A stretch of DNA of 32,082 nt from Phoronis australis (Eukaryota > Animalia > Phoronida). The stretch covers positions 1 to 32,082 of the forward strand of contig NMRA01001272.1 of assembly GCA_002633005.1 (NCBI GenBank), written 5' to 3'. The notes below the pieces were generated by a model, which worked only from the letters and a program-made list of their open reading frames with translations, made no database searches and was not told where the DNA came from. Positions 4,395 to 32,082 of this stretch are shown in pieces. Position numbers and translations under genes: made by a program. How positions within the stretch are numbered: the stretch's first letter is position 1; each line of letters opens with the position of its first letter.

Positions 4395-5447
4395 TTCGGG
4401 CTGTGAATAATTTACACAAGGGACGGTGGCATTAGTATTGTCAATAAAGTTATATTATATCATATTATACGATTTTTTCTCTGAAACATGTTAATCAAAG
4501 ACAACTCACAAATATGTAATAGCAATTTTAATAACGGATTCCATTAATTTTGTGTGTTATCTGCACTGCGCATACCAACCGAAATTATCTTTACGCACTT
4601 AGACTGACATACAAAAATCGATTGTTTTCAATCAATCTATAAAGAGCGTGAATAAAAAGTTTTTCTTTAATTTAATGGTGTGACTTCATGTGCAAGATAC
4701 AACACTGTTATTGAAATCAAAATAATTCTTTTCGGTTTCAGTTTCATTGATCACGTGAACGACTAACTATAGTCGAGAAGAATCACTTTCCGAGATCAGC
4801 CTCAGCTCGGAATCCAACTTAACAAGTTCTTACGTCGCAAGCAAACGTTTTGTTACCTGCGCTTAATAGCAGCATCAGTATGTGGGGTGTATTTCAAGCG
4901 CACTTTCACTGGTGAAATCACAGAACTTGATTTCAGCGTATGTCTGGCAAATAACGGCGGTAATTGGAGATTTGTAGTAAAATCGCACAACACAAGGAAT
5001 AGTTTGGGGTTTGTTTAGCTCTGTTAAAAGCTTGACGTAAGTTCATAAATTTTATTCCGCTCAATCCCAAGCTGGAGTTTTTCGGTCGTGAAAATGATAA
5101 CGTCCCTTTAACCAATGTATTTTGTTTCGGCGGTAATGAAAATCTTAAGTATGCAATAATACTGATTATAAGAGCAGACAATTTCAATTAAAACGAGCAC
5201 TTAGTAATTGCAGTTTAATCCACAGAAGCACCGTTTAATCAATACTCAATAATTCCAATTAGAATACCAAAAAACTAGCCATCTTGATATGTTGAAGTAA
5301 TACGGACTATTTTAAGTTAGAAAAATGTTAATTGCACACTTGAGAACACTAATATAACAGCTATTTTAAATTGTAGAAATATGATAATGTTATTGACGTC
5401 GTGAACAGAATTTTGGTATTAAAAATAGAGAACAGCGCACAATCTTT
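4395..5447 (+). repeat. Old tandem duplication, copy 1 of a ~1 kb non-coding unit
   Basis: Colinear with ~5479-6405, e.g. TTCGGGCTGTGAATAA, GAGAATCACTTTCCGAGATCAGCC, CGTGAAAATGATAACGTCCCTT, TTATTGACGTCGTGAA. Many substitutions and indels; boundaries approximate. Confidence 0.9.
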
Positions 5448-5478: not shown

Positions 5479-6405
5479 TTCGGGCTGTGAATAAAAACAA
5501 AGGATGGTGGTCTTTTGAATAAAGTTATATTGTGTAATATTAAACGATTTTTGTCTCTGAAAATGCTAAACTCGCACATATGTGATGGGCATTTAAACAA
5601 AACTTCACATTAATTTTGTGTGCTGTCCACGCCACGTATACCAACCGAGATTATCTTTACACACTTAGCCTGACGTCCAAAATTCGATTGTTTTCAATCA
5701 GTCGATGAAGGGCGTGAATGAGCAATTTTTCTTTATTGATTTAATGGTGCGACTTCATGTGCAAGGATACGACACTGTTCCTGAAATCAATATAGTTCTT
5801 TTGGTTTCAGTTTATTTGATCACGTGAACGACTAACGCAACACTACAGTCAAGGAGAATCACTTTCCGAGATCAGCCCCAGCTCGGAATCGAACTTAACA
5901 AATTCTCGAGCCGCCGTTAGAAGTTTCGTTAGCTGCGCTAAATCCCAGCATCAGTAGGCCCATGTGGGAGAGTACTTCACTGGAGAAGTCACAGGAATTC
6001 ACTTCAGCTGATGTGTGAAAAATAACGACGGAAATTGAGATTTGTAATAAAATCACGAATCAAACCGTTCAAACAAATTTTATCCCACTCTATCCCAAGC
6101 TTGCGTGAAAATGATAACGTCCCTTCAACCAATGTATTTACTTTTGAGGATAATGAAAATCTTACGTGTGCAATAATACTGATGAAGAATTTTAAGGGCG
6201 ACAAATTCAATTAAAACGAGTACTAAGTAATCATTAACGAACTTGATATATTCCGGCATTAATACGACTATTTGAAGTCATAAAAATGCTAATTGCACGG
6301 TTGAGAACACGAGGATCGCAGTTATTTCATATTGTAGAAATATGATGTTATTGACGTCGTGAATAGAATTTTGGTATTGAAAATTGTGAACAGGGCACAA
6401 TCTTT
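5479..6405 (+). repeat. Old tandem duplication, copy 2
   Basis: Same blocks in the same order as 4395-5447. The ORFs at 4933-5187 and 6004-6210 resemble each other for this reason. Confidence 0.9.
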
Positions 6406-6760: not shown

Positions 6761-8554
6761 TTAGATATCAAGATAACTAAACTCCTTCACATCACCTCCC
6801 TTCTCCAGTACATACACCTTCCCTGGGCCTGATGGACATATGGCTCTAGGCCAGCAGACATCACCCCTCGTGGTGATCACGTGTGCACGTGCAGGGGTCA
6901 ATAGATGGATACAGTGACAGAAGCAGTCGGCCAGGAGAATGTGGCCGAACTGATCCACACACACACAGCGCGGCACACACAGTCCATCACTGAATGTGTG
7001 TATAACGGCCGGCTGTGTGGGGTCAATCACGTACACACGTGGGGGGTAGTCCTGGCTCACCACCACATGTCCAGTGTTCTCATCCACACATATATAGTAC
7101 GGTGAGAACTCACTCAGACCCAGGGAGTGGGCGTCTATTTGATGATGGACCTCACAATCAAAGTCGGTGTACAACACCCGTCCACCCTGTGTATCCGCCA
7201 CTATCAGCTGGTCGGTGTGACATGTAATACACCCCTCATCTTTATACACACCTGGGTAGACCTTCACCAGTTGACCTCTGGCGTCATACTTCACAACACC
7301 GTGAATGTCGTGGTCGGTGATGAAGATCTCACCAAGTCTATTACATGTCACATCAAAAGGGTTCTGCAGTTGGTGCTGGGAGGTGTTTAACGTGAATTTG
7401 AAAGACAAGTTGTTTTTATTATACACCTTGACATTGTGGTTGTAACAGTCCGTTACAACCACCACCCCATCACCCACTGCCAGCCCATTACAACAGCCTC
7501 CCCTCTCCGCCTTAAGCAGACTGCTAAATCTCCGCTCAAGCTGAACATGTTTAACAGCCAGTTGAGGGGTCACACGGTGGACAGGTGATTTACTGGAAAC
7601 TGCAACAACTGAGGCAAAATTTTCAAAAAAAGTGGATGAAATATTTTCGTCTTCCATTTTTCTCATAATATTCACAGCTACATTTGGAACTGCAATTGTC
7701 GCAGGTTGTATTTCAAAGACTGATTTTTCAACCCGCTTCTCGACTTGATCAATATTCAAGTTCTTAAGAAGAGATTCAATCTCATTAAATTGTTGCAGTT
7801 TCTCAGCGTCATGACATGACTCAAGAACATTATTTACATAATCATCTATGCTAGCAAACATTCCCCTGTTAAACTCAGCCTCATCACAAGCAGCTTCTGC
7901 CCGTTTTCTCGCCGTCTCTACTTGTTTTTCCAACTCAGCAATAGCTTTCTCTTCATTAACCTTGACTTGACGAGTGATCTCTTCCAGGAAATCACTGTAT
8001 ACACGTTTTATCTCATTCTTACAAGCATTTTGTTGCTGGGCATAACTTTGTGCAACTTGCTGTCGTTTATTGCGCAACATTTCCCACTGCTGCGTAACAT
8101 CTCGCCAAGGTTTCAACAACTCACGCATCACTTCAATGGCGTCTTTTGCAGCAACGTCTAAATCTTTCAGTTTGTGTTGATTATGACTTGAAGTTGCGCA
8201 TCGTGAACATATGGCCACCTCGCACTGTTCACAGTACATTTCCAAAAGCCGGTCTCCATGAGCTGAACAATGCATTTTATTCATGCTGTCATAATTCGAA
8301 ACAATGTCACAGATACCGGCATGAAAAAAGTTATGTTGGAAGCCAGTGGCACCTTCTTTTGGAACAGGAAATTGTTTTCTGCACATCGGACATGGAAATT
8401 CACCACTTTGCCCCTGTTGTGTCATGTGACTGTTCAAGCAGTCTTCGCAGAATGAGTGAAGGCATGGCAAAACCCTCTGGTCACTGGATCGCTTAAAACA
8501 CACGGGGCACTCTATCAGTCGACGCAGCTGGGCAACTGGATCGTTCGACGCCAT
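6761..8554 (-). CDS. TRIM-NHL E3 ubiquitin ligase (TRIM2/3/71-like architecture), 597 aa, single coding exon
   Basis: C3HC4 RING (CPVC..CLHSFCEDC..CPMC), B-box (CSAH..CEQC..CSRC..HNQH), coiled coil, and NHL repeats (PFDVTCNRLGEIFITD, PRCVCVDQFGHILLAD). The true ATG at 8554 follows a splice acceptor (tttctgtctgcag|GACATG), so the first 10 aa in the ORF track are intronic. AATAAA on the minus strand at ~6726-6731 and ~6597-6602. Confidence 0.93.
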   Translation of the reverse strand: MASNDPVAQLRRLIECPVCFKRSSDQRVLPCLHSFCEDCLNSHMTQQGQSGEFPCPMCRKQFPVPKEGATGFQHNFFHAGICDIVSNYDSMNKMHCSAHGDRLLEMYCEQCEVAICSRCATSSHNQHKLKDLDVAAKDAIEVMRELLKPWRDVTQQWEMLRNKRQQVAQSYAQQQNACKNEIKRVYSDFLEEITRQVKVNEEKAIAELEKQVETARKRAEAACDEAEFNRGMFASIDDYVNNVLESCHDAEKLQQFNEIESLLKNLNIDQVEKRVEKSVFEIQPATIAVPNVAVNIMRKMEDENISSTFFENFASVVAVSSKSPVHRVTPQLAVKHVQLERRFSSLLKAERGGCCNGLAVGDGVVVVTDCYNHNVKVYNKNNLSFKFTLNTSQHQLQNPFDVTCNRLGEIFITDHDIHGVVKYDARGQLVKVYPGVYKDEGCITCHTDQLIVADTQGGRVLYTDFDCEVHHQIDAHSLGLSEFSPYYICVDENTGHVVVSQDYPPRVYVIDPTQPAVIHTFSDGLCVPRCVCVDQFGHILLADCFCHCIHLLTPARAHVITTRGDVCWPRAICPSGPGKVYVLEKGGDVKEFSYLDI

Positions 8555-9956: not shown

Positions 9957-10098
9957 CCTGTTCTGCCATGTGACTGTTCAAGCATTTTTCGCAGAATGAG
10001 TGAAGACATGGCAAAACCCTCTGGTCACTGGAGCGTTCAAAACACACGGGGCACTCTACCAGTCGACGTAGCTGGACAACTGGATCGTTCGACGCCAT
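9957..10098 (-). CDS. Second TRIM-NHL copy: N-terminal RING fragment (47 codons), cut at the N at 9956
   Basis: MASNDPVVQLRRLVECPVCFERSSDQRVLPCLHSFCEKCLNSHMAEQ, with the same acceptor context as copy 1 and no stop or frameshift. It ends exactly at an N, so it is a paralog or alternative haplotype cut by assembly. Confidence 0.8.
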
Positions 10099-11148
10099 GT
10101 CCTGCAGACAGAAAATAATTATAATCACTCAAGACATATTTCGGCATCATACCGGTGTTTTCCAATGAACTAACCTTTGATAACCGATAGACATTAAACT
10201 GGGGCTGATGATTATCAAAAGTCATTCACTTCGTGGTAGATGGAACTAAAATAGTCCTAGGCAAAACAATTCAAATTCAACTTCTACGGTTTTTTGTCAG
10301 AGCAAAACGTTGACTGCTTTTTGTATTCGTTCTTAATAACATTTAATTACGACCAGTTTAAGGTTATATAGGACCTTATTGACAAATCTGTATACTTAGC
10401 AAAATATCTGTACAACTATAGAACTTAACTCTCAGCGAAAGTATATATTTTCTGAAAGCAGAATTTACCTAGAAGTTAGTAACTGACTTTAAACCAACTT
10501 CCCATTAATAAGCTCAAGTGATTAGTATGCTTTTATCGTAAAATTTTGAACAAAAGGGAAGTGCATTCAAAGCAAAACCACGAGATCAATTACATGATTA
10601 AATTTAGTGTGATATAAATGCTACAAATAAAATCTCAAAATCTTTGTAATAGTTATTTTCTAAATTATCAATTCCTTTTCGTTAGATGTAACTTTGATTT
10701 TTTCACTAAAATCAGCCCTTTTTTTGACAGTCCCTGATGCAAAAGTAGAACATTTTAAATCAATGCCTAACAGTGCATAAAGTGTAATATCTTTAATTTG
10801 CACGTAAATTTGTTCAGTCACTTCTGGGGTACTCTGTGATGTTCCTTGGATTTGAAAAAAATGTGTTTGAGTTGGAAGGAAATGAACACAGAGTTACAGC
10901 TAGCCACCAAGACAACTAGCACTATAACATCAAACAGCTTTACACCAACACCAAGGCTAGCTAGTTTGTAATAAGGCTTAGAAAGTAAGCATCTAAATAA
11001 AGTGTTTACTATGCATCGGTACAGGAAAATAGGACAAGAAAACAACATTAACACAAGTTGTCACAAGTAGGCCTACTAGTTACTTATTAAAGTACAAAAT
11101 TAATAGGGCCTACCATGACCCATGTAGAAAGACGCAACACATGAAATT
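9957..11148. repeat. Near-identical duplicate of 8413-9589 (TRIM 5' CDS plus intron)
   Basis: Aligns directly along its whole length; bounded on both sides by Ns. Confidence 0.95.
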
Positions 11149-16970: not shown

Positions 16971-18849
16971 ATTGGATGTCTCTTAACGATCAAACTTGGC
17001 TTAAAAACTTTTGAGTGCCTTCTAACGATGAACCCTGGGTTAACATTATTGGGTGCCACCTAGCTATGGGTGTCGACTTTCTGACGGATCTGACTACCGC
17101 TGTGCCCGCTCCAGTGGCATCTTTACTATCTTTTGCCTCGTCGGAGTTCCTTGACGGATTTCTATGATATTTAGTAAGTATGGTTTTATTAAGCCCTTAA
17201 CGACTCAGCCATTTACGTTTTCGGACAGATATTCATTTAAGAATTTTATTCTGTCGACTATCTATGTCATCAGAATCGGAGATTAAGCCTGCATTGTACA
17301 GATATTGGTAAAATAATGAATTACCATTAACACTTTAAATTGCAATTGCTCTATATTGCTTGTTTAGACGGCTATATCAGTAGGAACTTTACTTAACATT
17401 TGTGGATTAAGAACTTCAATGGCGGCCTTTTGGGCGGGGCCAGCTGATGCTGTGAAGGGGATAACGATTTTGGTTGAATGCTGAAAAAAACGTAACTTAT
17501 TTTGCAATACCGACAGCTAACATAACATAATAATAGTGAAACACATGTGTGCACCCAGGGGGATCTCGGGGTCTCGAAGGAGCCTCCTCATTTGGCGGGT
17601 CCGCCGAGAAAAAAAGTCCATTAATTTTAAAGAAGGCAGGAGTCTGTGACTGCAAAATTCATTTCCCTGCCTTAGGCTACGTACGCCGTTTTTTTGTTTT
17701 TGAAGTAGCGGTCCACATTCTCAAGAATTCGAGCCCCCTCATATTTTAGGCTGTATGCCGTGCATGCCAGTGGAATCAGTCAAGGGCCTGCATGCCACCA
17801 AAGAGTGAGACGGTGGTGCGCTCAGTAGACTAATAAGTTGCCTGCGCCGCGTTCGTCACAACTTGAGGATAGCTAAAAACTAGTATAATCGGCTAGAAAT
17901 CTATTCAATTTTTTATTTCCTTTTCATAGCCACATGAGGGGCATCTCGGTAAAATATTTAGTAAGGCTGTGAAACGTTTTGTGTAGAAGCGGCACGCTAA
18001 AATTTGAGACTAAGTCCAGCCGTTCCGCAGACGTAGGAAGTCACTAGGAAACTAAGTATAACTGAGGCCATTCCTGCAACGAAATTAATCTTGTGAGGAC
18101 TACCAGGATGGTTGAATACATGTATGACCTTGTACGTGAGCGCCGCGGGCACTACTGAATTTGAAAGCCCGTGCAGGCAGCCCGGCCCGCACCAAAAAAT
18201 CACTGATTTTATTTATTTGAAATAAATAGGCTACTTTAGACTTCTGCCGAGTATGAACATGAGACCCGAGTGTACTCAACTATATTTCTGACCGACCGAC
18301 GGCAGGGTGACAGCTAGAGAATGAATTCGAAAAAGGAAAGCTATTTAGGGATATGTTTCTAGGAAAAACATCTTTTGGGAGTCAGTCCCATATCGCCCGA
18401 TGCTCAGGTAGTAACCACTCTCCACCAGATGTCAGGCGTGTCCGTTTCGATTTTTATCTCCCCACTTCAAAAACTGGTCCCTTTCCACTTTGCGAAGAAG
18501 TGAACAGCGACGAAAGCACATACAACACTGTTATCTGTTATTTCAAAGCCACTACGACCGTCAACTCGGAGTTTATGCGCAGAAGGTACTTATTGCACCA
18601 TGGTTTTTGGGATGGCCGAACTAAAGTCTTTAGGCTCGGTAATTACATCGCTTTGAATGCCGCAGCCATCCGAGGCCGAGGGGTTAAGAAGTCGCATGTT
18701 GTCTACTCACTACTCTACTCACAGACATCCTCAGCTTCTGATCGTCCCCAATACACTATATAATACTACGTACTATCAGAAGCTGAGGATGCCTGTGACT
18801 ACTGTGTCATATATACAGTGTGCAGCCTGTTGGGACTCGACGAGCCGAG

Positions 18850-19425
18850 CTCGCTGGTTCCCTGCGTGCTTAGCCCAGCCAGCACGCAGGTATCACGCAG
18901 TGGCACGCGCTTTAGCATTGGTCGATGTAATCTTGGCAGTCATTGGTTAGCTTTACAACACCGTGAAAAATGGCAGACTGTGAATGGTTTTAGCCTTGTC
19001 ATGCAAGTGGTGTCGCAGCAACTATTTCGTTTGTGCAGTGATGTTTAATAGCCGGCGCGCGCTTGAAGCACATACATGCACAATAAACACATATTACGGT
19101 GTGTTATTCATACTGTATAAGGACACTATCGTAAACAAAAGTCATCGACAGTATAAAGATGCATTCCGAAAAGGCTCAATCACAATTTCTAGGCTTCACA
19201 TTTCCTGAACATAATTTTAAGCACCGGTTTGTCTGTACAACAGACCACATTTACACTTCAGTCCATCAGCCATGGCCAGTTTGTTTGCGCAAAGCGCTGC
19301 CTGTTGACGAATCGACTAGCCAATCAGAAACGCCGGTGTAAAAAAATTTACAGAGGAAATTTAAGTGATACCTGCGTGCTGGCGCGGCTACCGCCCCACC
19401 TAGCGGCACGCAGGGAACCAGCGAG
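18850..19425. mobile_element. 576-bp non-autonomous TIR element with 9-bp target-site duplication (MULE-like)
   Basis: TIR CTCGCTGGTTCCCTGCGTGC / GCACGCAGGGAACCAGCGAG; inner inverted repeat GCCAGCACGCAGGTATCAC (18878-18896) / GTGATACCTGCGTGCTGGC (19365-19383); CGAGCCGAG at both 18841-18849 and 19426-19434. Confidence 0.85.
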
Positions 19426-22152: not shown

Positions 22153-22191
22153 ATGGATGAAGCTACACAAGATTCAGTCACTGCTCCAGAG
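22153..22191 (+). CDS. HDAC6: HDAC6 coding exon 1 (MDEATQDSVTAPE)
   Basis: ATG preceded by an in-frame TGA (22144) and acceptor AGs; donor GAG|GTGAGT; phase 0 matches the next exon. No homology support. Confidence 0.6.
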
Positions 22192-22743: not shown

Positions 22744-23174
22744 CAAGGTACCTAAACTACACGGTTATCGTACTCATGAACACGACTCACTTACCTGCAA
22801 ACACCGTCAACTGACTCACGAACACGCGAACGGACTCACAAAACGCGATCTGTTCACCCAAATGTACGGGACACGGCCTCACATTCACGAAGAAAACACG
22901 GTTAACGGACCGCCAAGCACTGTTTACAGACAAAATGTAGATGTCAGCTGACCCAGAAAGCCGATGAGTCCATGACCTGTGTTTGGCGGTCCGTTAACCG
23001 TGTTTTTCCGTGAAATGTGAGTCCGTGTCCCGTGTTTTTGGTGATTGAATCGTGTTTTGTGAGTCTGTTCTCATGTTTGTGAGTCAGTGAACGGTGTTTG
23101 CAGGTACGTGAGTCATGTTCATGCGTCCGTGACCGTGTTTATGAGTCCGGTAACCGTGTAGTTTAGGTACCTTG
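22744..23174. mobile_element. 431-bp foldback MITE with long imperfect TIRs and TAAAA flanking duplication
   Basis: CAAGGTACCTAAACTACACGGTTA ... TAACCGTGTAGTTTAGGTACCTTG; arms of ~175-200 bp; TAAAA at 22739-22743 and 23175-23179. Confidence 0.9.
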
Positions 23175-23747: not shown

Positions 23748-24422
23748 GTATTTTATGATTTGATCAAATTTAGACTGTATTTTATGATTTGATCAAATTT
23801 AGACTGTATTTTATGATTTGATCAAATTTAGACTGTATTTTATGATTTGATCAAATTTAGACTGTATTTTATGATTTGATCAAATTTAGACTGTATTTTA
23901 TGATTTGATCAAATTTAGACTGTATTTTATGATTTGATCAAATTTAGACTGTATTTTATGATTTGATCAAATTTAGACTGTATTTTATGATTTGATCAAA
24001 TTTAGACTGTATTTTATGATTTGATCAAATTTAGACTGTATTTTATGATTTGATCAAATTTAGACTGTATTTTATGATTTGATCAAATTTAGACTGTATT
24101 TTATGATTTGATCAAATTTAGACTGTATTTTATGATTTGATCAAATTTAGACTGTATTTTATGATTTGATCAAATTTAGACTGTATTTTATGATTTGATC
24201 AAATTTAGACTGTATTTTATGATTTGATCAAATTTAGACTGTATTTTATGATTTGATCAAATTTAGACTGTATTTTATGATTTGATCAAATTTAGACTGT
24301 ATTTTATGATTTGATCAAATTTAGACTGTATTTTATGATTTGATCAAATTTAGACTGTATTTTATGATTTGATCAAATTTAGACTGTATTTTATGATTTG
24401 ATCAAATTTAGACTGTATTTTA
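23748..24422 (+). repeat. Perfect 29-bp minisatellite, 23 copies plus 8 nt
   Basis: Unit GTATTTTATGATTTGATCAAATTTAGACT; no variant units seen; no spacers. Confidence 0.98.
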
Positions 24423-24553: not shown

Positions 24554-24714
24554 GTGACGGAGAAGAGAAAGATTAAGAAGGACAAGAAAAAGTCACAGTC
24601 TCTTGCTGATGTTAAGAAAAGATGTCGACAGCTTAAAAGTAAAAATGAACAGACATCTGTTATTCAAGGACTAAGAGAATTGTCCGTCGACAAACGCCGT
24701 AACATGTCAAAGAA
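24554..24714 (+). CDS. HDAC6: HDAC6 coding exon 2 (basic N-terminal region)
   Basis: VTEKRKIKKDKKKSQSLADVKKRCRQLKSKNEQTSVIQGLRELSV... resembles the LAEVKKKG...LIVGLQGMDL region of vertebrate HDAC6. ctacag| acceptor, |gtgaga donor, phase 0-2. Confidence 0.8.
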
Positions 24715-25143
24715 GTGAGACATCACGAATTAGGTTCTTTACACATTGTCTGTTTTTACTGTTAACATTAAAATCAAATTTGAATTTCATATAGGCACAT
24801 AGACCATGCGCCTTCTTAATGTCAAGTTGCATTTGGCGACCTAGCAAATGTGCAGATTTCACGAAATAAATAGAACAATTGTGAATCAAAGGTTATAATT
24901 TTGGGAAAATTGTTAGTAGTTTCAAGTTTGCAACTCAACATGAACTTTGAAGGAAACTTAGAGTGAATTATAGTCTGGCTTTGATATTTGCAGTGGCGAT
25001 TTCATGGCGACCTGGAATTTTTCTCTGGTCGCCGAACACAATTTGAGGTCGCATTGACGACATGCAGGTTGCCAAGTCGAACGCTGACCTGGCATTTAAG
25101 TGACAACTGTATTGCTTCAGAGGCTGAAATAAACCTGCCACGA

Positions 25144-25341
25144 CAAGCTACCATTATGCATCCTAAGCAATAATAAACTGCCAGTTATACTCAACCTTCC
25201 ATTTTGCATCCTAAGCAATAATAAACTGCCAGTTATACTCAAGCTACCATTATGCATCCTAAGCAGTAATAAACTGTCAGTTATACTCAAGCTACCACTA
25301 TGCATCCTGAGCAATAAGGAATTGTCAGTTATACTCAAGCT
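25144..25341 (+). repeat. 48-bp minisatellite, ~4 copies
   Basis: Unit CAAGCTACCATTATGCATCCTAAGCAATAATAAACTGCCAGTTATACT. Confidence 0.95.
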
Positions 25342-25959: not shown

Positions 25960-26101
25960 CACTGGGTTTCTGTATGATAAAAAGATGTCTGACTACAGAT
26001 GTCTCTGGAACCCAGCCTTCCCAGAATGCCCTGAACGACTTCTCCATTCATATGACAGATGTGTGGAATATGGACTGGTGGAGCGATGTGTCCAGATACA
26101 G
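25960..26101 (+). CDS. HDAC6: HDAC6 coding exon 3 (start of catalytic domain 1)
   Basis: TGFLYDKKMSDYRCLWNPAFPECPERLLHSYDRCVEYGLVERCVQIQ; class II HDAC PECPERL motif; AG/GT, phase 2-0. Confidence 0.93.
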
Positions 26102-26163: not shown

Positions 26164-27364
26164 ATATAGAGTGTTACAAGGCGAAGTCGTTATCCCCCGT
26201 TATCTAGAGCCCGAATGGATTTTGGAGAATTATTGCCTGAGGTAATAGTTCTACAAAATCCACAAGGGCTCTAGACAAGGGGTACAACGGCTGAGAACAT
26301 GTAACAATCTATTTATACCAAATACTAAACGATAAACTTTGCAATGAATCGATTTACCTTTCTCGACTCACCTCAGCTTTGTAACTACTTTCTATGTCAG
26401 AGGCCCTGGTTGGAGGTCGTAACCTTTTAAGAAAAGCTGAGCTATTTTTGTCAAATAATGCTTTTATTCAAAACCAATCGAAAATTTAAACAAAATATAA
26501 TTAATAAAATGAATTTATAAATTAAGGTTACCAACTATTATAGCTTAAAACACATTTTATCACGCTAAGCTTCGACCGGGAAGCGATCTTCTGCTGAAGT
26601 ACGGGTTACCACTGGTAACTGAGAATAGTTCTTAAGTCAAAGGTGATTTACGAGTGAAAGAACATGAGAGAAAAATTTCACTGAATTAAAATACAGTTTT
26701 TATGGAAATTATTTGTCTTATTTTTCATAGCGTATAAATGTCGGTACAATGACCTTTATTGAACATGCGATTATTGCGCGTGCTCATTTAAGTATTCTAT
26801 TTTCACGCTTGATGACGTCAGCCGCTGAGTGGTGTAGTGGTAAAGTCGGCGACCGAAACTCTTGAGACCCGGGTTCGAAACCCGGCCTCGGTTTCCCGCC
26901 AAAATTTTATCTCACTAGTGAGATAACTTTATGGTTTATTTATACGTTACATTAAATCAACTTTTACCGAAGGAAGAAATACAATGATTCACCACAACGT
27001 TATACTCAAAGACGCCACTGTTACGGGGCAGAAGCGCTTTTTGAGTTTTTTCACGCTTGTTAATACTTTCTTAGAATTTTAGACAGATCTTCTGAGGACA
27101 GAGTGGGGTTTATCACTAGTTTCTGTTATTAAATACTTCTCTATAAGGTCTGAAAGGGCAGTGGCTATAAAATACCTGTGGGGCGGGACAGACTCTGGCT
27201 TGTTAGCACAAGTCACTATTCATATTCTGATGTCCATTGTAATGTCCACTTGAAGCTATTTGCTGGCTAGTTATTGATATGGAAATGTTCATGCGGGCTC
27301 TCTTGAGACCACATGGTTTGAGTCGGTCTCCGGTTTGTGAAGTGTGGCTATATCGTTGGTATAA
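26164..27364. mobile_element. Hairpin-ended non-autonomous element in an HDAC6 intron
   Basis: Imperfect palindrome of ~150 bp at 26166-26312 (ATAGAGTGTTACA..TCTAGAGCCC..TGGATTTTG / CAAAATCCA..GGGCTCTAGA..TGTAACAATCTAT), then TTATACCAA (26313-26321) matched by TTGGTATAA (27356-27364). Confidence 0.55.
26824..26892 (+). pseudogene. tRNA-like sequence (tRNA pseudogene or SINE head)
   Basis: A box TGGTGTAGTGG, T arm CCGGG-TTCGAAA-CCCGG, weak acceptor stem GCTGAG/CTCGGT; no convincing anticodon arm. Confidence 0.6.
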
Positions 27365-27851: not shown

Positions 27852-27989
27852 ATTGAAGCTGTGTGCGAGGACAAGCTGTTAGCACTTCATACGCCAGAGC
27901 ACATTGAACTCATGAAACGAACGCAAGCTATGAATTATGAAGAGCTGCAAGATGCATCTTCAAAATATGATTCTATATTCCTTCATAAT
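27852..27989 (+). CDS. HDAC6: HDAC6 coding exon 4
   Basis: IEAVCEDKLLALHTPEHIELMKRTQAMNYEELQDASSKYDSIFLHN; AG/GT, phase 0-0. Confidence 0.92.
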
Positions 27990-28319
27990 GTAAATATTCC
28001 TTACCATTAAGTTTATGTGCTTGATGTAAAATTCCAGGAACTCATGAGAGATTTCACTGCAGTTCACATTTATAATGTCGACTACATGTTATCAAGTAAT
28101 CGAACCCCTTGGGTTGTTCTACATGCAGTTATTTTCCAAAAGGATTTGCCTAGTTTCCACATAACGCTCTTAAAGAACTGATGAATTGAGAAACAAACCT
28201 TGTTGTGTTCACTAATTTAAAAATGGACTGCTTTTTTGACAGTCAGTACTTCCTTACTGTTGTCGGTATCATCGTTTGCGAATTTCCGTCTCACGGTCTT
28301 TTTATTTCAATTCCTACAG

Positions 28320-28417
28320 AACTCGTATGATGCCGCCCTTCTGGCTGCAGGGGGCGCTGTGCAGCTTGCTGAACAAGTAGTCAGTGGACATTTAAAAAAT
28401 GGCTTGGCTTTGGTCAG
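28320..28417 (+). CDS. HDAC6: HDAC6 coding exon 5
   Basis: NSYDAALLAAGGAVQLAEQVVSGHLKNGLALV(R); phase 0-2. Confidence 0.95.
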
Positions 28418-28694
28418 GTAATAAATACGCTTCTATCTTGATCATGGCTATTCTTCAGTTGTTTCACTAACCAACCCACAGGTATTGCACAACATGACGC
28501 ATTATAGACAGAATTCTGTTGACATGAGTCAAGCAAACAGCAGAGGTAACTTTTACCATGAGAAGATTCTTGATCCAGCTACATTCCATGTCAAATATCC
28601 TCACCTATAATTGGTGCTTGAAGAATTAGTTTTTGGCAGTTTTAGTGATAGAAATAATATGCTGCCCAGTAATAAACATACCTTTTGTTTTCAG

Positions 28695-28796
28695 ACCTCC
28701 TGGCCATCATGCTAATTCTGAACTGTGTGGTTACAGTTATTTTAATAATGTTGCAATCGCTGCCAAGCATGTATTGGACAACATGGGTTTAGAACG
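28695..28796 (+). CDS. HDAC6: HDAC6 coding exon 6 (catalytic His dyad)
   Basis: (R)PPGHHANSELCGYSYFNNVAIAAKHVLDNMGLE(R); phase 2-2. Confidence 0.96.
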
Positions 28797-28861
28797 GTAG
28801 GCCTTGTCTTTTCTCTTTGTCGTGTCTTGTCTTGTATAGTAAACAGCATTATAGCTTACGT

Positions 28862-29178
28862 CACATCTCATTCATGGCATGTTCATAACTGTTGCCCACA
28901 TCTCATTTATGGTGTGTTCATGACTGTTGCCCACATCTCATTCATGGTGTGTTCATGACTGTTGCCCGTATCTCGTTCATAGTACGTTCATGATTGTGGC
29001 ACACATCTCATTCACGGTCTGTTCATGACTGTTCCACACATCTCATTCATGGTGTGTTCATGACTGTTACACACATCTCATTTATGGTGTGTTCATGACT
29101 GTCGCACAAAATCTTATTCACGGTGTGTTCATGACTGTTGCTCACATCTCACTGATGCTGTTTTCACGACTATTGCAC
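28862..29178 (+). repeat. 35-bp minisatellite, ~9 diverged copies
   Basis: Consensus CACATCTCATTCATGGTGTGTTCATGACTGTTGCC. Confidence 0.95.
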
Positions 29179-29394
29179 CCAAATTACACTACTGAGACAG
29201 TTTTATTTTATATGTGCACAGTCAAATTAATCATGTCTCATAAACACACGTTAACTCCTACATGTAGTTTCCTTAATATGTGAAGAATATTCAATTTGGA
29301 AGAAAGTGAATAAAGCTTGTTTATTTGAAGGAAATAACAACCAGTGCCCAGTATTCTGTTCAACCAATAGTGACTCCTCGTGATTCTATTTCAG

Positions 29395-29463
29395 TGTATT
29401 GATCATAGACTGGGATGTTCATCATGGCCAGGCCACTCAACAGATGTTTTACGATGACCCAAG
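29395..29463 (+). CDS. HDAC6: HDAC6 coding exon 7 (Zn ligands, DWDVHHG), ending in a GC donor
   Basis: (R)[22 protein letters not shown](R); donor AAG|GCAAGT; phase 2-2. Confidence 0.95.
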
Positions 29464-29713
29464 GCAAGTCTTGATTAAGTAGTTTTTGATGTCAAGAGCC
29501 CATTTTTGCTTCAATGGTATACTCTTTGTGAACTAATTACAGGAACTGTTCTTTGTCTCCTGCTCAAGATAATCTGGTTGTTTGTTACAAACTTTTTTCA
29601 TCATTTTGTTTGCTTTCAACTTTGTGACCCAAACTAATTGAGACTATATTCAGCAAGAGTTTTAAGGATTGCACTGCACATGATTTTAGTGTACAGTTGT
29701 TATTTTATTACAG

Positions 29714-29840
29714 GGTTCTTTATTTTTCCATTCATCGTTTTGAATATGGGTTTTACTGGCCAAATCTTCGTGAGTCCGACTACGACTACATTGGCGAGGG
29801 AAAAGGTCGTGGCTTTAACATCAATGTTCCTCTTAACACT
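29714..29840 (+). CDS. HDAC6: HDAC6 coding exon 8
   Basis: (R)VLYFSIHRFEYGFYWPNLRESDYDYIGEGKGRGFNINVPLNT; phase 2-0. Confidence 0.96.
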
Positions 29841-29876
29841 GTGAGTAAAGAACAGTTATCTACAGCTTGTCATTGT

Positions 29877-30024
29877 AAACGACTTATTTTTAATATTTCA
29901 CATATAAGCAAAAATGCAATTTCAGGCCTCAAAAGTGGGGCACTATATTAAAATGGGAGGCACCATTTTTGAAGCTCGAAATTGAATTTTTGCCTATGTC
30001 GTTTTAATAACAATAAGTTGGTTT
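29877..30024. repeat. Imperfect palindrome (hairpin element remnant)
   Basis: ATAAGCAAAAATGCAATTTCAGGCCTCAAAAGTGG versus CCATTTTTGAAGCTCGAAATTGAATTTTTGCCTAT; core 29904-29997. Confidence 0.8.
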
Positions 30025-30640
30025 AAATGAAAAAAAATATGGTAATGTACACGTTTATTGGCCCCTGCCTCAGTTTCCTACTAAATGTGTTTTTTGGAGT
30101 CATTAGTACATGACTATTCAATTTGATTCGGGTGTAGTGTGTTCTTGAGCTATACTTGTTGGAGCACACAGCTATCCCTTGTGTGTATATGAATAAACTT
30201 GTGGATCACTGAGCGGACTCTACTGTGTTTCATGACTGTTTGAACTTGTTGAATACTTTAAAATATTTATTCAATTTCTGTTTTCCAGTCTCAGTTAACA
30301 CTTGTTTGTTATTTGTTGAACAATGTTTTTTGTAAATGTAACTACTATAAAAAGCAACATGTTTAATATACTCGAAAACATTAGGAAAGTTACATTTAAT
30401 TGTTGCTAAATCTATTTTACATAATACAAATGATGGTATGTGATCACTTTTGAGGGAGTTGCATAATATTTGGTGCTTCTGTGGCAGTGGTGAAGAACTA
30501 GACCATTCATTGGCTGTTATGTTTCTGATGTCATTGTTTTACGATGTCTTTCATATTTGTGATGTCATTGGTTTGTGTGGACTGGTTAATGGTTGTTCAT
30601 TTGACTCCTAAATTGGTGATGTCATGGATTTTTGTTACAG

Positions 30641-30706
30641 ACTGGGTTGGGTAACAGTGACTATATGGCAATATTCCAACAACTGTTGATGCCTGTCGCC
30701 TACGAG
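30641..30706 (+). CDS. HDAC6: HDAC6 coding exon 9
   Basis: TGLGNSDYMAIFQQLLMPVAYE; ttacag| acceptor and |gtaagt donor; phase 0-0. Confidence 0.95.
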
Positions 30707-30940
30707 GTAAGTATTACATGATATTCTTCATCCTGTCTTTCATTTGAGAGGAAATTTCCACTGTTATATTGATTCAAGGAGACTTGAAGTTAAATATTTC
30801 TTATGCTCTGGAGACCTGCACCAATTGAAATAGTTTTTATTTTTAAGGAACACAATTTGTTCCGTTTGCAGTCAAAGTTGGTAGTTCAAGTACAAATTAA
30901 TTACATTTCTTTGGTTACCATTTCTTGAATATTTTTCCAG

Positions 30941-31000
30941 TTTGCACCACAGATAGTTTTAGTGTCTGCCGGGTACGATGGCGCTGTTGGATGTCCCGAG
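30941..31000 (+). CDS. HDAC6: HDAC6 coding exon 10A (alternative; Glu gatekeeper)
   Basis: FAPQIVLVSAGYDGAVGCPE; tttttccag| acceptor and |gtattt donor; 60 nt, phase 0-0. Confidence 0.92.
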
Positions 31001-31027
31001 GTATTTGAATGTCTGCTGTGTTGTCAT

Positions 31028-31493
31028 GAGGGGAACAGGGAGCATTTACATGGTCACAGTTTTTGACAAATGTAAAACAGAACTTTCTGCTGAATATCGT
31101 TTTTGCTGCTAAAATGTGAATGTTTAAGAAATTGTACTCTGTTACTCAGACGCTTGTTAGAGAAGTTGAGGTCCAGACATTCTAATTTCTGCATTTCACT
31201 GTCCGACTGATTTTCCTATTGTTTGCCACTCAGTAAATGCAGAGCCTGACACAGTGGGTGCACTGAAATGTCTGGAATTGACCTCTATCAGTGCGCAAGC
31301 GATTATGTAGTGAACTAGTTGACCTTCCACACAGCCAGTTTGCACACACCAGTGTGTCTAATTGTCTCTGAGAATGTATAACATTCCAAATTTATTGCTT
31401 CCTGAACCACCAAGTTAATTCAGTGCCCTCATTACCTTGTTGTCCGACCTTTGACCTCACCATGTGACCATGTCTATGTCCTCTGTTCTCGTC
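31028..31493 (+). promoter_or_regulatory. Intronic long-range RNA duplex (31028-31058 with 31463-31493) enclosing a hairpin (31151-31301)
   Basis: Gapless 31-position pairing with 24 Watson-Crick and 3 G-U pairs; regulatory role inferred from its position. Confidence 0.7.
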
Positions 31494-31554
31494 GCATTCT
31501 TTCTTATTAGCAGTAGTTTGTTACTCGTAACGAAAACTTTGTTGTTCTGTTCAG

Positions 31555-31614
31555 TTTCAGCCTCAAGTGGTTCTTGTGTCTGCTGGCTTTGATTCAGCAA
31601 TTGGCTGCCATAAA
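31555..31614 (+). CDS. HDAC6: HDAC6 coding exon 10B (alternative; Lys gatekeeper)
   Basis: FQPQVVLVSAGFDSAIGCHK; ttctgttcag| acceptor and |gtaaat donor; 60 nt, phase 0-0. No further exon recognised before the window ends. Confidence 0.9.
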
Positions 31615-32082
31615 GTAAATATTTTCTTATTTACTTTTTATGATAAATTTCTTTTTTTCTCCTTTTCATCAACTTTGTTGTATTAACATTTAGTTAGTCC
31701 ATTGTCCTTACACTGTGACATCAAGTCTGAAAAGACCTCTCTCGTCACGGCAACTAGCTTTTCCTACCTGGTCATTTCTGGAGTGGTAAATTACCTTGGG
31801 ATCTGTAGATTTTGGCAAACAGGGCATGCAAATGTAAAAGTTTTTGCCGTGTGGTGCCTTCTTACTGTTAGTCAGCACCCATGTCAGCTTTCGATTCATG
31901 AACTTTTGAAACAGGAGTTTAAGGTGATTTGTTATTTGTACCTGTACATGACTGACAGATATTTAGTAAATTATTATCTTTAGTTATAAAGACAATTCCT
32001 ATATCAGTTGCTACAGAGGTTAATTTTTTTGGAAATAATGTTTGTTGTCAAAATGGACCTTACACAGTTTAGTTCACTGATC

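Follow-up and report, generated by a model that had tools for sequence, protein, structure and literature searches.

Mutually exclusive splicing controlled by RNA structure is already known, as is the exclusion of one exon by another through linear steric hindrance, of which alpha-tropomyosin is a case; for Dscam exon 17, in work from 2013 by Yue, steric hindrance is said to be joined with RNA structure. In FGFR2, a single long-range stem, formed by IAS2 (ISE-2) and ISAR, is tied to the two-exon mutually exclusive pair IIIb and IIIc; it sits in the intron between the two exons, as does the stem described below, and Muh et al. in 2002 reportedly found it to be sequence-independent. The docking/selector systems of Dscam, 14-3-3zeta, Mhc and srp likewise use long-range intronic pairing at a cluster of duplicated exons, with stems that span an exon and compete (PMC4691838 and PMC6027157, in the sections available). 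Linear hindrance is described for OGDH exons 4a and 4b, which have distant branch points, with a steric limit of about 50 nt (PMC7969005, available sections); another published limit is 60 nt (PMC13762713, available sections). Finally, the zipper stems of yeast introns lie between the donor and the branch point, at least 10 nt from the former and at least 20 nt from the latter, are poorly conserved in sequence and leave a linker of 42-85 nt, a range modelled as compatible with the spliceosome; such stems can enhance splicing (PMC12350175, in the part accessible).

Here, we describe a predicted RNA stem between two alternative exons, A and B, of an HDAC6 gene of Phoronis australis, in a stretch of 32,082 nt of genomic DNA (hereafter, the window). 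Judged by analogy, it seems to work most like the FGFR2 stem. In FGFR2, however, double inclusion leads to a frameshift and to NMD, whereas exons A and B both keep the frame, and the FGFR2 arms are homologous across species, whereas those of P. australis and of the insect-type introns described below are unrelated. A reading made from the sequence alone had named Dscam, Mhc and 14-3-3zeta as precedents. That parallel does not hold, since those are competing docking/selector systems, whereas the stem here lies within the intron at 31001-31554, and no competing partner for either arm was found in positions 28000-32082, where the best alternatives reach -23.4 and -20.3 kcal/mol against -40.8 kcal/mol for the stem. 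Linear hindrance fits the orthologous introns of 40-54 nt directly; in P. australis, the linear distance is 530 nt and closeness could come from folding only. Yeast zippers enhance the removal of constitutive introns, whereas the intron here separates alternative exons. The HDAC6 exon pair, together with the alternation of short introns and clamps, is what appears to be new: no description of the pair was found in the open-access literature, although genome-wide tables of exclusive exons may list it; nor did that literature yield a locus that has a short intron in some lineages and a clamp of unrelated sequence in others, and the accessible parts of four reviews hold no case of hindrance made by folding (PMC11802352, PMC7404189, PMC6071210, PMC12962786).

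The features of the locus, all on the forward strand, with the evidence for each, are as follows.

25960-26101, 27852-27989, 28320-28417, 28695-28796, 29395-29463 and 29714-29840, +, six upstream exons of HDAC6 domain 1 (homology, open frame)
30641-30706, +, constitutive exon before the pair, ending ...VAYE (AG/GT ends, open frame, RNA reads)
30941-31000, +, alternative exon A, 60 nt, FAPQIVLVSAGYDGAVGCPE (homology, RNA depth of at most 2)
31001-31554, +, A-B intron, 554 nt, with the weak donor GTATTT (sequence)
30997-31000 (the end of exon A), 31007-31010 and 31013-31018, +, 5' side of predicted weak outer helices (prediction only)
31028-31058, +, 5' arm of the clamp (folding, pairing, shuffles)
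31463-31493, +, 3' arm of the clamp (folding, pairing, shuffles)
31508-31513, 31516-31519 and 31524-31527, +, 3' side of the predicted weak outer helices (prediction only)
31526-31531, +, candidate branch point CGTAAC, with the A at 31530, position -25 (motif scan, AG-free zone)
31555-31614, +, alternative exon B, 60 nt, FQPQVVLVSAGFDSAIGCHK (homology, RNA joints)

Eight exons between 25960 and 31000 encode 267 residues of HDAC6 domain 1 with no stop, and this reading is 58-60% identical to the best mollusc HDAC6 matches among the proteins fetched. Exons A and B have the same length of 60 nt, are bounded by AG and GT, encode the same 20-residue segment of the HDAC fold and keep the frame. Residue 20 of exon A, its last, aligns with E274 of zebrafish HDAC10 (6vnq, residues 255-274); exon B has its best match in HDAC6 CD1 and ends in a Lys at the place of K330 of zebrafish HDAC6 CD1. 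The gatekeeper residues of the vertebrate enzymes are K330/K353 in HDAC6 CD1 and E274/E272 in HDAC10 (PMC5454378, available part); thus, the same two residues that end exons A and B are found in vertebrates in two genes, whereas here they belong to one gene and would be switched by splicing. The L1-loop exon (about 25960-26101) aligns without gaps to HDAC6 CD1, its 43 residues spanning 45 of HDAC10, and its alignment lacks the two-residue helix insertion (PACE) of the HDAC10 L1 loop. Because the loop has the length of that of HDAC6, and because removal of the L1-loop helix renders HDAC10 bifunctional (PMC5454378, same part), we predict that the form with exon A (the E form) would be bifunctional, not strictly a polyamine deacetylase; the form with exon B is the K form. 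The same gene has a GC-AG intron at 29464-29713, and its first coding exons are probably at about 22153-22191 and 24555-24717 (found by eye), the second being rich in Lys and Arg.

The exon pair is not confined to P. australis. In 120 listed homologues, the segment in domain 1 ends in a GCPE-type or a GDxK-type motif, and six carry both in tandem. Ten clusters of homologues have 99 listed members, 88 of which include the segment (53 with E only, 21 with K only and 14 with both). E-only and K-only forms coexist in nine of the ten clusters (crab, two oysters, mussels, locusts, Biomphalaria, Anopheles, Mya and abalone) and both forms are also present in Octopus; isoforms with both exons are annotated in five of the ten (crab, three oysters and mussel). 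The latter are gene models and assembled transcripts, and may represent real leakage or modelling errors. As judged from these sequences, the E/K pair is common to arthropods and molluscs, and ancient. It was not found in deuterostome invertebrates, with 10 of 150 representatives looked up. Three HDAC6-like proteins of 1763-2025 residues (P0001, P0213 and P0002) have at least three catalytic-site motifs, which may reflect extra deacetylase domains or fused gene models.

Transcription of both exons is seen in three raw RNA runs of one study of the same species (X5-X7), about 18-19% of each of which was read. Twenty-six reads were placed, all oriented as expected for a transcript of the forward strand and none in the A-B intron. 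The constitutive exon at 30641-30706 is covered in all three runs, the joint from the upstream exon to exon B is found in nine reads (seven, one and one across the runs) and the joint from exon B to an exon beyond the window in eight and six reads. The depth over exon A is 0 in X5 and at most 2 in X6 and X7, so that it is covered in two of the three runs; its own joints fall below the threshold of three reads for listing a joint. No A-B joint is listed among the 26 reads, at that threshold and at an exon A depth of at most 2.

The two arms of the stem pair without gaps through 24 Watson-Crick pairs, three G-U pairs and four mismatches, and a run of 11 contiguous perfect pairs forms the inner end; the geometry given in the sequence-only reading was thus recovered in full. 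The duplex has an energy of -40.8 kcal/mol, and in four folding contexts of 554-1259 nt its pairs have probabilities mostly between 0.83 and 1.0. It begins 27 nt after donor A and ends 61 nt before exon B, so that 88 nt remain when the stem is paired, close to the shrinkage of the 554-nt intron to about 90 nt that had been proposed. None of 1000 dinucleotide shuffles reached the helix score of 48 (mean 26.9, maximum 43). In the 32-kb window, however, eight of 108 other sliding windows of 554 nt score at least 48, an empirical rate of about 7%; these represent six distinct features, mostly long DNA inverted repeats. Dinucleotide shuffles therefore overstate the rarity of the stem, which is about 7% locally, not below 0.1%. 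When the first 80 nt of the intron were paired with the last 150 nt, windows picked after the stems had been seen, the end-to-end duplex reached -56.0 kcal/mol, a value attained by none of 500 shuffles in each of two schemes and by one of 200 in a third. Among the eight introns of the gene tested in this way, the A-B intron is the only one with such a duplex (z of -4.1, against -0.9 to +1.5 for seven upstream introns). The G-U pairs had also been put forward as a sign that the stem belongs to the transcript. The three pairs are indeed present, and the sense strand is more stable than the antisense strand (-40.8 against -32.9), but one A-C mismatch would be a G-U pair on the opposite strand, which leaves the argument thin.

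A pattern scan of metagenome contigs gave 27 loci, of which 13 carry an A/B pair (nine distinct introns), one ends inside the intron, 12 are E-only by motif and one is a chance match; the exon A pattern had no match in the set of genome contigs or in that of viral contigs. Three lineages have very short A-B introns, of 40 nt (L022), 49 nt (L002, identical to L014) and 54 nt (L026), and in L022 and L026, where a motif was found, the donor lies 15 and 21 nt from the candidate branch point. In an intron of 226 nt (L024), the end-to-end duplex is no better than expected by chance (305 of 500 shuffles reach its score), and a weak end-to-end helix is predicted for this intron in context. The remaining group is formed by five related introns of 461-502 nt from insect-type sequences, presumably of termites. 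Hence, two lineages combine a long intron with a clamp, one has a medium intron without a clamp and three have very short introns; the five insect-type sequences, being close kin, count as one lineage. The introns of 40-49 nt indicate that, elsewhere, the layout of the locus makes a joint between A and B hardly possible, and in the three short-intron lineages, going by these lengths, length itself can presumably bar the joining. Constitutive introns of 51-59 nt do occur in loci with a single exon of the pair, so that 54 nt is not always unspliceable. At the E-only loci (L001, L004, L006, L007, L010, L011, L015, L017, L018, L020, L021 and L027), the intron before the next constitutive exon is 51-82 nt long in 11 of the 12 and too short to hide an exon B; the K exon may be absent or lost in several lineages, or these loci may be paralogues.

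The best helix of each insect-type intron has one side at position +21 and the other 66-99 nt ahead of the acceptor. With energies between -37.8 and -51.2 kcal/mol, the end-to-end duplexes are matched by 0-3 of 500 shuffles of the ends and, bulges included, by 0-15 of 500 shuffles of the whole intron; the ungapped part by itself lacks significance (14-30 of 200 shuffles). For four upstream introns, used as controls, 7-102 of 200 shuffles reach the score. The core pairs have probabilities of 0.87-1.0. In the alignment, variation is found in one of the 38 core columns and in 72 of the 384 other columns (Fisher p 0.011, post hoc and with related sequences). Of 150 pairing cells, 149 pair, three changes keeping the pair as G-U; put by pair, 26 of the 30 are invariant, three show one-sided changes that still pair and one is broken in one sequence. 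Measured within this group, the arms are conserved and keep their pairing, and none of the 30 pairs in the five introns shows a two-sided compensatory change. The partial locus (L016) has two differences in the region of the 5' arm, both at unpaired positions. The insect-type arms share no evident sequence with those of P. australis, and donor A is weak there as well (GTTTGC). From these sequences, the insect-type clamp appears to have arisen at the same intron position independently of the P. australis stem.

A second partner for the insect-type stem was considered in the upstream intron, with energies of -29.7 to -35.0 kcal/mol (0-3 of 30 shuffles) and a site shared by four of the five sequences. 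This is a G-rich site about 560-770 nt upstream of donor A (in L005, L012, L013 and L019) that could pair with the inner portion of the 3' arm; L012 has differences on both sides that might be compensatory, and the pairing, if real, would loop out exon A. It was not accepted as a competing partner, for it resembles what we take to be a common interspersed repeat.

What may the stem do? That it has a function of some kind seems to us very probable. The best single reading, which we favour while placing it somewhat short of an even chance, is that of a clamp by which donor A and the branch point of exon B come to crowd each other. Paired in the pre-mRNA, the arms would leave about 400 nt in a loop, and the pairing would bring donor A beside the candidate branch point at A31530; the two would then be too crowded to be engaged jointly, and a transcript would take up only the E or only the K gatekeeper exon. 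The linear distance from donor A to the candidate branch point is 530 nt, and the AG-free zone is of 36 nt. As had been argued from the sequence, linear hindrance does not apply here, and a distant branch point near donor A was ruled out by the many AGs downstream. With the stem paired, the unpaired linker from donor A to the branch point would be 27 + 37 = 64 nt, and in the insect-type introns 20 + 29 or 30 = 49-50 nt, values at or above the published 50-60 nt. The predicted outer helices (probabilities of 0.5-0.72, in one folding context), in which the final 4 nt of exon A face the bases that directly precede the candidate branch point, would shorten the 64-nt linker and leave little of the gap open, which favours crowding. 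Crowding is further consistent with the strength of the stem and its restriction to one of eight introns, with the very short orthologous introns of three lineages, with the separate clamp in the insect-type group, with the insect-type linker of 49-50 nt, at the limit of about 50 nt, and, weakly, with the absence of a listed A-B joint. Against it stand the linkers, whose lengths lie within the 42-85 nt of yeast zippers, the lack of a two-sided compensatory change in the insect-type group, the clampless intron of L024, the fact that an intron of 54 nt is not always unspliceable, and the 14 of 88 homologues with both exons, which imply that exclusivity may be leaky or the models wrong. In long introns, the clamp would replace the sub-minimal intron that compact genomes have at this locus. 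Broader still is the idea that HDAC6 domain 1 has switched between E and K since at least the common ancestor of arthropods and molluscs, with exclusivity held by a conserved geometry and not by sequence, be it a short intron or clamps of independent origin that would fold long introns down to the steric limit; this we advance as a tentative proposal, and a doubtful one.

The stem could instead set the ratio of A to B, as a bridge of the FGFR2 type that carries protein-bound elements to donor A or to the branch region of B, with exclusivity loose or secured elsewhere. Pairing in FGFR2 controls the mutually exclusive IIIb and IIIc and is kept from sea urchin to human, and long-range stems in SCN9A and ATE1 shift the ratio and leave exclusivity intact (PMC12772994, in the sections available). 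The weak donor A in both P. australis and the insect-type group, the skewed and run-dependent usage seen in the RNA and the both-exon isoforms annotated in half of the clusters all agree with a bridge; yet the read counts are too small for ratios, and the introns of 40-54 nt in three lineages, where no bridge fits, would go unexplained. We regard a bridge as possible and rather doubtful, below crowding. An opposite effect, in which the intron, made shorter by the clamp, would be removed more readily and an A+B isoform or stepwise splicing would gain, appears improbable to us. The linkers of both lineages do fall within the yeast geometry (with candidate branch points), yeast zipper stems also diverge in sequence between species (PMC12350175, as above), and annotations of an A+B isoform exist for crab, oysters and mussel. 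Set against this are the nine reads joining the upstream exon to exon B, with no A-B joint listed at this shallow depth, the introns of 40-49 nt elsewhere, which point to selection against A-B joining, and the product itself, since inclusion of both exons would, by inference from the fold, duplicate a core strand and the zinc-ligand loop. Splicing in yeast proceeds by intron definition, and the transfer of zippers to animals is uncertain.

Finally, the arms may be neutral, either what decay has left of the ends of an old inverted-repeat element or a repeat that arose by chance in a repeat-rich genome. The scores of eight of the 108 other windows, a ratio of G-U to A-C of merely 3:1, the lack of a clamp in L024 and the restriction of the data on arm conservation to the insect-type group would all fit. 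However, no target-site duplication of 2-9 nt flanks the outer ends as drawn, the 32-kb window contains one copy of the 5' arm at three mismatches, nothing in the window or in the 27 loci matches the intron except for its own arms and short chance hits, and positions 30600-32082 have no Rfam match at E values up to 1. Moreover, chance would hardly place a clamp of unrelated sequence at this very position in the insect-type introns and conserve its arms better than the rest. A neutral origin thus seems to us unlikely, more so than a bridge. Within the 32 kb, the absence of a target-site duplication and the single copy speak against terminal inverted repeats of a MITE.

If the clamp bars A-B joining, steric hindrance made by folding would do the work of a short intron at an orthologous locus, which would then offer a natural experiment on whether the donor-to-branch-point limits are a matter of spatial distance or of the number of nucleotides. 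Much of the interest of the stem is owed to the flanking exon pair, which, regardless of the stem, makes this HDAC6 a candidate polyamine deacetylase of protostomes and predicts two HDAC6 enzymes with opposite pocket charge in mosquito, locust, oyster, snail and octopus; their E and K forms are already in the databases, as unnamed isoforms.

The window also contains an intronless TRIM-NHL gene at 6761-8554 on the reverse strand, encoding 597 residues with RING, B-box and NHL domains; by eye, its 5' end and about 1.2 kb upstream of it recur at about 9960-11148, beside a gap of Ns, and may be a partial duplicate or an assembly artefact. Inverted repeats that outscore the stem are found at 22769-23129 (with arms of 94 nt), 29902-29999, 26196-26282, 18871-19390 and 18719-18798, and are likely remnants of small transposons. 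A stretch at about 26820-26895 looks by eye like a tRNA, with A-box and B-box resemblance, possibly the head of a SINE; ARAGORN called no tRNA gene, there or elsewhere in the window. A diverged direct repeat of about 1 kb was seen by eye at about 4400-5400 and 5480-6400, and three intronic tandem arrays are present, at 25144-25341 (4.1 copies of 48 nt), at 28862-29176 (9 copies of 35 nt) and at 23748-24422, where a unit of 29 nt is repeated 23.3 times with 100% identity.
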